From the IMG/VR virus record IMGVR_UViG_2684622619_000004: DNA of 12,720 bases. One strand, 5' to 3'. A program made the position numbers. The stretch is from a virus (lineage: Duplodnaviria > Heunggongvirae > Uroviricota > Caudoviricetes). Shown here one piece after another: positions 6,001 through 9,000 of this stretch (the first letter of the stretch is position 1; the number at the start of each line of letters is the position of its first letter).

Positions 6001-9000
6001 CTCAGAAACAGGAATATTTAAATGGCTAAAAACAAATTCAGTAGTAAGAGTAAAAGGTAGTATTGCTGGAGGTGTTAGTGGTGGTTATATATGCATTAGT
6101 ATAAATAATGTTTTGTATAAGGCGCATAGACTTGCTTGGTTCTATGTATACAAAAAATGGCCTCCTAAGTTTATTGATCATGTAAATGGGAACAGACTTG
6201 ATAATAGGATTTCAAACCTAAGACTGGCAACAGAAGAGCAGAATGCAAGAAACATTGTAGGGAATAGATTAAACACATCCGGTGCAATTGGAGTGTCTTG
6301 GTATAAGCCAACTGGCAGGTGGAAGTCTTATGTTGGTTATAAAAATAAGACAATATCGTTAGGGTATTTCGATAGCAAAGAAGATGCAGCATTCATAGCA
6401 GCACTAGCAAGAAAGAAACTATATGGAACTTATGCGAGTAAAGCACTTAATTGCGAGCATGAGCTTTTATCTCAATTTAATAATGATGAGGATAAACTTG
6501 CGGAATATCTTAAGGAAAAATATAAAAGGACTCGAAAGCGTGTTAAAAAAAGATAAAGGCCTGCTGGTAATCGCAGGCCTTTTTATTTGGGGGAGAGGGA
6601 AGTCATGAATCTGGACAAGCAAGATGCACAAACTATTAGCTCATACATAAGGGCATCAAGACCAGATTACAAAGGTCCGGTATTCGTAGATTTATCTCGC
6701 CTTGAATAGATTTACATGTGGAAAGCAAGGTTACTTACGCATTTTGTTATTCGAACGATGACTAGCAACATTACAAAACCAATGTAACTGGAAGAGGTGA
6801 ATATGAGCACACTCGCAGACCTTATTCATGCCGATATGGCTGAAGATGGAGCAAGGCGTAATAGGTACTGGAAATCATCGAGCCTTCCAGTTTGTGAAAG
6901 ATTCAATCACAGGCCAAAACCAAAACGTAGCCGACGAGACAAAGTGTTGAAAAAACTCATGCAAATTAACATGGCTGGTTTTGTCAGATTCGTGAGTGAA
7001 ACGACTAACGGTGATTGATATGGACGAATCAAGAAAGCAGTTTGAGGAATACGTTGCCAAAAAATTGAGATTACCATTCGAGATGATAACCGAGGCAAGA
7101 AATGGTGATAGGTACTTCGCATTTTCAAGCATGGATATTCGTCACTCCTTAAATGATTGGTGGGCTTTATGGCAGGCATCGCGAGCAGCTATTGAACTGG
7201 ATATCGACTGGCCCGAATCGAATGACGACCTTTGGAAAGATGGTGAAGAAGGTGCTTATGCGATGGGTTATGAGGATGGGCGTGACAAAACGGTAATTGC
7301 AGTAATGAAAGCCATCAGGGCCGCAGGAATCAAAGAAAAGAATTTCGATTAAGCAAATATCACTTCAATAAATCGCTTTTAAGGCATCACAATCGCTCTG
7401 TGGTGAGGTAAGCACGTGCAAGGTATACCGATAAGCAGCGAGAATGAAAAATGCGTCAGAATGCGTTTGAGGAGGTTTTAAGAAATGAGTACGATAGCTG
7501 AGCTTGTCAGGGCTAATTTTCGTGAAGAGTTGGTGCGTTGGTATCGGTATCGTTCATCGTCCAGTTTGCCGCTTGATGAGTTGTATGAGCATTCACCTGC
7601 CGCACGACGCTATCCGCGTGACCGTGTTCTTCGACGGTTGTTCAAACTCAACAATGAGTTTCAGCGCAACAGAATTATCCGGAGTCTGGATTTTAAGTGA
7701 AGGAGTGAGCATGAGCGACCTATCATTAACCCAGCCAAAGCTAAAAGAATGTCCGTTTTGCGGCGGTAATGCTCGTCTGTGGGTTGAGGCCGGAATAAAT
7801 ATTGATGTGTGGGGCTATGCAGAATGTGACCTCTGTGAAGCCAGGGTGGCATGGGCACCATCAGTTGCTGCGGCTACTGAAAAATGGAACCGGAGAGCAG
7901 GAGATGAAGCAAACCTTTCTGCTTCGCAACGAAGCAATCAGAAATAACGCCATAGACGCCATTCTCTCACTACCCATCGACGACAAGTCACCCCACGAAG
8001 TCCACGTTAAAGAACCCAAGCGCAGCAAAGCGCAGAATGACCGCATGTGGCCGATGCTGAACGATGTTTCGCGTCAGGTGCTATGGCATGGTCAACGGCT
8101 GGCGCCGGAAGACTGGAAAGACCTGTTCACTGCCCTGTGGCTTAAGACCAAAAAACTGGAGCAAAGAAGTGCGCCTGGTATCGACGGTGGCGTTGTCATG
8201 CTTGGCGTGCGTACCAGCAAAATGCGAAAGGCCAGCATGACTGAGCTTATCGAAATCATGTTCTGGTTCGGCTCAGAGCGCAACGTGCGGTGGAGTGATG
8301 ACTCCCGGCGAGAGTATGAATGGTCACAACGAAAAGGGAAGGCTGCATGACTATCAAATCAAATACGCCAGCACACGACAAGGACTGCTGGCAAACGCCG
8401 CTCTGGCTTTTTGATGCGCTGGATATTGAGTTTGGATTCTGGCTGGATTCAGCTGCGAGCGACAAAAACGCTCTGTGCGCTCACTGGCTAACTGAGGCTG
8501 ACGACGCGCTAAATTCTGAGTGGATAAGCCACGGTGCAATCTGGAATAACCCACCGTACAGCAATATCAGGCCGTGGGTGGAAAAAGCCGCTGAGCAGTG
8601 CATACAACAGCGACAGACGGTAGTGATGCTTGTGCCAGAGGATATGTCTGTCGGATGGTTCAGCAAGGCTCTGGAGAGTGTTGACGAAGTTCGCATCATC
8701 ACTGATGGACGGATTAATTTTATCGAACCATCGACAGGGCTGGAGAAGAAGGGAAACAGCAAAGGCTCAATGTTGCTGATTTGGCGACCGTTCATCAGTC
8801 CTCGACGGATGTTTACTACCGTATCCAAAGCGGCATTGATGGCGATCGGGCTGGGCGTCAGGAGGGCTGCATGAGGCGACAGCGACGAAGTATCACCGAC
8901 ATCATCTGCGAAAACTGCAAATACCTTCCAACGAAACGCTCCAGAAATAAACGCAAGCCAATCCCAAAAGAATCTGACGTAAAAACCTTCAATTACACGG

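Follow-up and report, generated by a model that had tools for sequence, protein, structure and literature searches.

Lar-like and GATC methyltransferase genes flanking ninB in a Stx-type lambdoid prophage as probable independent mosaic cassettes

Phage lambda encodes in its leftward operon Ral, a functional analogue of Lar that is unrelated to it in sequence. Lar of the Rac prophage (= RalR), which adjoins recT, alleviates Type I restriction (PMC2993543), and in a re-description RalR is a non-specific DNase toxin that cuts DNA whether or not it is methylated and makes up a type I toxin–antitoxin system with the sRNA RalA (PMC4041452). Among phage methyltransferases, the orphan Dam of phage T1 methylates GATC, and host Dam methylates T1 DNA only partly; deletion of the T1 gene gives a burst of ~32 versus ~52 on a Dam+ host that lacks restriction systems, and GATC methylation affords T1 no protection from a GATC-specific Dnd system (PMC10470545). 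The DAM of lactococcal phage Phi93, a small NPPY-only enzyme, also methylates GATC and protects DNA from DpnII (PMC4190342). For the Stx phages, a statement in Forde et al. (PMC6602927), citing Radlinska & Bujnicki 2001, has it that M.EcoVT2Dam of VT2-Sakai 'is known to target' 5'-GATC-3', and for the dam gene of Phi24B the protein has been detected and the transcript found by qPCR to respond to induction (PMC3342100).

The DNA analysed here is a stretch of 12,720 nucleotides (IMG/VR record IMGVR_UViG_2684622619_000004; hereafter the window), which carries a well-known locus, the early (delayed-early) nin region of an E. coli lambdoid prophage of the Stx type. Positions 7400–9200 have 100% DNA identity to the Stx2c-converting phages 1717 and 2851 and 98–99% identity to many other Stx phages, and phage 1717 is 100% identical to the window across 89% of its length, inside 61–11387. 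An ISEc8 element that phage 1717 carries between its helicase and HNH endonuclease genes is absent from the window (5866–5945 versus 4052–6493 in L001), the rest being identical. At least part of 7711–8874 is held by 1570 of 5426 complete E. coli genomes, and most of it by 624. RefSeq names the four genes concerned "Lar family restriction alleviation protein", "NinB", "phage N-6-adenine-methyltransferase" and "NinE", and the PGAP names in those E. coli genomes match; the RefSeq entries for 1717, VT2-Sakai and 933W read 'Lar-like restriction alleviation protein', 'NinB/Orf', 'DNA methyltransferase' and 'NinE', and in Phi24B the Lar-like gene carries the name lar. PHROGs agrees with the Pfam/NCBIfam family assignments made here. 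The four genes are real but ordinary, and finding them is a re-discovery of standard annotation: the identifications made in a prior sequence-only reading are the same as those in RefSeq, and every coordinate it gave, for a cluster at 7711–8874 followed by ninE, was correct, but gene names and methylase specificity were already public in annotation and literature.

All genes of the segment lie on the + strand. A DUF7301 gene (71 aa; 7485–7700; PF23975, 3.8e-26; phrog_1785) is followed by a Lar-family zinc-ribbon protein gene (78 aa; ATG 7711 to TAA 7947; PF14354, TIGR03655, phrog_599), ninB for an Orf-family recombination mediator (148 aa; ATG 7904–8350; PF05772, 2.1e-48), an orphan phage N6-adenine DNA methyltransferase gene, here dam (175 aa; 8347–8874; PF05869, TIGR01712), and ninE (60 aa; 8871–9053; PF05322, 8e-44). 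As the sequence-only reading had proposed, a Lar-like CxxC...CxxC protein overlaps the ninB start, with ORF and motifs confirmed and an overlap of 44 nt, and an NPPY methyltransferase is coupled between ninB and ninE by ATGA overlaps at both its ends (8347 and 8871). Each ATGA lies within the ten-base GGCTGCATGA, whose left copy (8341–8350, + strand) spans the ninB stop and dam start and whose right copy (8865–8874, + strand) spans the dam stop and ninE start, both read from the sequence and from comparison with locus L167. NinB and NinE homologs occur in lambda order with overlapping stop and start codons, NinB being 43–44% and NinE 94% identical to the lambda protein. The lambda nin region shares this NinB...NinE frame with ATGA-type junctions but, as also proposed, has NinC and NinD in the slot taken here by dam, and ren in place of DUF7301 and Lar. 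No promoter-like or terminator-like sites were found on the + strand between a hairpin at 6555–6582 and the isrK promoter at 9054, consistent with co-transcription in the early rightward operon. We favour, with a probability of about 0.75, the reading that this is a nin segment with two independently acquired accessory cassettes flanking ninB, dam and the Lar-like gene having the roles proposed below.

Further features lie downstream of these genes. On the 3' side of ninE is the Hfq-binding sRNA gene isrK (9090–9166; 74.7 bits), with a promoter-like site at 9054–9083 and a terminator at 9145–9161, and a second RNA gene, the C4 antisense RNA (9192–9275; 66.7 bits), comes next; the antirepressor gene ant (9328–10092) lies just downstream of both, and the three together resemble a P1/P7-style module in which RNA controls ant. 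Within ant, a 30-nt unit repeated in tandem about four times (9515–9634) encodes a peptide that recurs between the ORF6N domain and the P22_AR_C domain. A run of 50 N at 11210–11259 has duplicated sequence on both sides (region 10889–11877): 11018–11209, the 5' part of ninG, is repeated at 11686–11877 (97%), and 8931–9058, the 3' end of ninE, at 11260–11387 (98%), which gives the order roi, partial ninG, gap, ninE fragment, ninF and full ninG. This N run most likely marks a scaffold gap or a chimera joined from two lambdoid prophages, or else masks a recombinant junction.

The methyltransferase scores 216.4 bits against PF05869 (cut-off 28.1) and 264.2 bits against the TIGR01712 equivalog 'phage N-6-adenine-methyltransferase' (cut-off 97.05). 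Its NPPY (residues 68–71; 8548–8559), the catalytic (D/N)PPY motif, is invariant across 40 homologs; L-D-x-A-A (residues 33–37), within the motif I-like LDSAAS at 8443–8460, is invariant too and looks like an M.TaqI-type motif I, in a segment where the predicted structure is poorly modelled. The enzyme consists of little more than its catalytic core and has no separate target-recognition domain. It shares 173 of 175 residues with the VT2-Sakai protein NP_050531.1 (orf32, M.EcoVT2Dam), which occupies the same ninB/ninE slot with the same ATGA junctions and differs by two substitutions, I60V and L169Q (window to VT2-Sakai). The two are effectively the same gene, found also in the Stx phages 1717, 2851, Phi24B and 933W, the Phi24B version being 100% identical to the VT2-Sakai enzyme. 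Because the window enzyme is 99% identical to M.EcoVT2Dam, its specificity can be taken as effectively known, and the question of specificity that the sequence-only reading had posed would already be answered by the M.EcoVT2Dam literature: GATC.

More distantly, phage T1 Dam (YP_003925.1) belongs to the same Pfam family (33% identity), and T1 Dam and HP1 Dam (PF05869/TIGR01712) have W-x-TP, LD-AAS and NPPYS motifs in common with the window enzyme. T1 Dam is likewise an orphan that methylates GATC, but it is longer (237 aa, with N-terminal and internal extensions) and comes from a virulent phage, without nin context or Lar neighbour. Other relatives are present in lactococcal and staphylococcal phages, and a PDB sequence search returned nothing significant for either the methyltransferase or the Lar-like protein. 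By contrast, similarity to E. coli Dam was not found (BLASTP E = 7.6; no PF02086 match), so that 'Dam-type', the term used in the sequence-only reading, is apt for function (GATC) but not for family, which is T1/HP1/VT2 PF05869. E. coli Dam, T4 Dam and DpnM, the alpha-class GATC methylases, are functional analogues and not relatives, and the window enzyme is far smaller than these and lacks their separate target-recognition domain. The description as an orphan stands, because no restriction endonuclease gene adjoins it, its neighbours being NinB and NinE; the sole nuclease-like gene in the vicinity is a homing-type HNH ORF (5945–6556). In two related loci, L076 and L081, an HNH/AP2-type homing-endonuclease-like ORF (~3444–3971), 33% identical to this HNH gene, is inserted in the 5' end of dam at the equivalent of window 8372/8383; the insertion captures the first nine codons of dam, which gets a new N-terminus.

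GATC itself is scarce in the window. We counted 28 sites versus 53 ± 6.6 in shuffles (expected 53–58), a depletion that none of the other fifteen 4-bp palindromes matches (observed/expected 0.48), and a GATC-free stretch of 2.7 kb (6176–8844) takes in the Lar-like gene and ninB along with most of dam. That E. coli prophages contain GATC-poor regions has been reported previously (PMC6602927). The depletion shows that GATC is under selection in the window but does not tell which force is at work. There is a second GATC-free stretch, of 2.1 kb (3867–5966), in a phage that nonetheless encodes a GATC methylase.

GATC-cutting, methylation-sensitive systems are not known to be common in E. coli, and the GATC mark duplicates that of the host, which leaves the restriction-protection part of the proposal without an identified target in the natural host. 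Given in addition the T1 burst benefit without restriction, counter-restriction is neither the sole nor a demonstrated benefit. Phage Dam might, then, not be mainly for restriction at all, full GATC methylation instead shielding DNA from MutH and SeqA during replication and recombination, or serving packaging or gene timing, which we consider possible but on balance doubtful. The T1 dam deletion loses ~40% of the burst on a Dam+, restriction-free host, where T1 DNA is left partly unmethylated by host Dam; dam lies directly after ninB in every locus collected by NinB similarity that has enough downstream sequence, and this position beside ninB would fit an action on MutH and SeqA; the GATC depletion and the 2.7-kb GATC-free stretch point the same way. 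Nonetheless, lambda copes with NinB and no Dam, the ninB–dam linkage may be mere proximity in a few lineages, with ninB present and dam absent in L167 and L085, and for lambdoid phages such a role would be a reading by analogy.

We then compared gene content across related loci, 80 viral ones similar in NinB and 90 similar in Lar (80 viral plus 10 genomic), onto all of which the window proteins and the lambda Nin proteins were mapped. Most related loci are very close relatives from O157-type genomes and, since they dominate the sample, the separability described here reflects a few independent events or lineages and is not a statistical test. In most close relatives the order is DUF7301-Lar-NinB-Dam-NinE. 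NinB-Dam occurs without DUF7301 or Lar in seven loci (L064, L065, L072, L073, L074, L076, L081), whereas two have Lar without Dam, in the order Lar-NinB-NinE (L167) or Lar-NinB-NinD (L085, from Intestinirhabdus alba). DNA comparison placed the boundaries of both cassettes. In loci that lack Lar, homology to the window restarts at 7903, one base 5' of the ninB ATG, and DUF7301 and Lar are missing as one block from L064, L065 and L073; this restart implies a DUF7301–Lar block of ~543 bp (7361–7902), the last 14 aa of the Lar-like protein being read-through into ninB in the other frame. On the other side of ninB, dam is missing from L167 and ninB is joined to ninE exactly via the GGCTGCATGA repeat, which defines dam as a 524-bp cassette bounded by GGCTGCATGA repeats.

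The Lar gene also varies internally. Most relatives have a G6 run, which in the window is the interrupted GGGTGG (7846–7851), and in 933W (L173) and the IMG/VR contigs L027 and L033 the run is G7 and the frame is shifted after the second CxxC. The G run may be a slippage-prone site or one of recurrent inactivation. From these comparisons, Lar and dam are separable, as independent mosaic cassettes each found alone in otherwise near-identical nin regions, and Lar is dispensable in at least some viable phages.

These data bear directly on the claim of the sequence-only reading that Lar and Dam act together as a single coordinated counter-restriction module that is coupled to ninB and protects phage DNA during early replication or recombination, which we now judge improbable. 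The genes are indeed adjacent, co-oriented and overlapping, without internal transcription signals, both are present in most of the close relatives sampled, and each family has anti-restriction precedent. Against a single module, either cassette occurs alone with exact boundaries, Lar is frameshifted in three relatives, and Lar and Dam are not consistently inherited together across the relatives; at ≥95% identity, phage records hold the dam allele 244 times versus 119 for the Lar allele, about twice as often. Moreover, the PF05869 enzyme of T1 functions by itself, with no Lar annotated in that phage, and near distant Lar homologs there is neither NinB nor Dam. A 'cluster' in the sense of a single unit is not supported. 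Of the joint counter-restriction role, only part has support, namely the family-level precedent for each gene, and the benefit seen in T1 is independent of restriction. A counter-restriction role for each gene on its own would remain plausible, by analogy with characterized family members.

The Lar-like protein has cysteines C14/C17 (CPFC, 7750–7761) and C39/C42 (CDLC, 7825–7836) that form a four-cysteine zinc ribbon, and its conserved C-terminal EKWNRR aligns to ERWNKR of RalR, preserving W-N-x-R. It exceeds the cut-offs of PF14354 (Lar_restr_allev; 37.8 bits, cut-off 28.6) and TIGR03655 'Lar family restriction alleviation protein' (61.4 bits, cut-off 39.6) and matches phrog_599 'Lar-like restriction alleviation protein'. 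The possibility that the ORF is an overlap artefact was rejected, since the ORF is conserved and its product scores above the thresholds of two curated family models. In the RefSeq entry of phage 1717 the protein is annotated as 141 aa from a GTG (window 7522; window 7522–7947 = NC_011357.1 18947–19372), a start that we rejected because translation from it would read the conserved DUF7301 gene in a different frame; the 78-aa form from ATG 7711 is the better call, as it also has a good ribosome-binding site, AAGGAG at 7700–7705, five bases 5' of the ATG. Overall, the protein is 36% identical to RalR (first named Lar) of the Rac prophage, with which it has the family models, the four-cysteine ribbon and the WN(K/R)R motif in common, and both genes sit beside phage recombination genes, recT in Rac and ninB here. 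It differs from Rac Lar in falling below the cut-off of the RalR equivalog NF007260 (28.7 bits, cut-off 113) and in its location in the rightward nin operon and not beside recET. The window shows no avoidance of EcoKI sites (two found versus 1.6 expected). Homologs were few, only six proteins in a large protein database and ten loci in a scan of species-representative genomes, too shallow for a useful alignment, and the searchable literature yielded no experimental paper on a Stx-phage Lar homolog.

Given its 36% identity to RalR, described as a DNase paired with RalA (PMC4041452), the Lar-like protein might be a RalR-type DNase toxin, or another DNA-binding factor, and not a restriction alleviator. 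We think this unlikely: the score on the RalR equivalog model is far below its cut-off, and no RalA-like partner emerged, there being no Rfam sRNA next to the Lar gene in a search of the window and no inverted repeats of at least 14 nt pairing with 7711–7903 anywhere in it; nor is a toxin–antitoxin role obvious for a gene in a lytic operon. It seems highly unlikely that dam is kept by ninB so that full GATC methylation of new and Orf/NinB-recombined DNA blocks MutH and SeqA, a recombination and replication protection and not anti-restriction; in a weaker variant, the Lar-like ribbon protein would modulate a methyltransferase other than a Type I enzyme.

In the preferred reading, of two cassettes acquired independently, dam would be a minimal T1/HP1/VT2-family methyltransferase that methylates the adenine of GATC. 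It would be made only after induction, on the rightward early transcript, a timing suggested by gene position, by the lack of internal promoter or terminator signals and by the qPCR data for the same gene in Phi24B. The enzyme would top up GATC methylation where phage replication outruns host Dam, and fully methylated progeny DNA would resist GATC-specific, methylation-sensitive nucleases of the DpnII/MboI class; it may also give a general growth benefit unrelated to restriction. The Lar-like protein, for its part, would favour modification of unmodified phage DNA and so weaken its restriction by Type I (EcoKI-family) enzymes, most likely acting as Rac Lar does, to judge from family membership. 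Lar and dam would be neighbours because lambdoid nin regions are mosaic, and not through mutual need. Counting against these roles, the score of the Lar-like protein below the RalR equivalog cut-off makes a family-level function an extrapolation, RalR itself is now also described as a toxin (PMC4041452), and T1 Dam methylation failed to block Dnd restriction at GATC (PMC10470545).

The value of this locus lies in little beyond confirmation, and it provides no new handle on the phage GATC methylase or on Stx-phage Lar function. A phage GATC methylase in Dam+ hosts and any alleviation of Type I restriction by Stx-phage Lar homologs could affect the spread of Shiga-toxin phages between E. coli strains.
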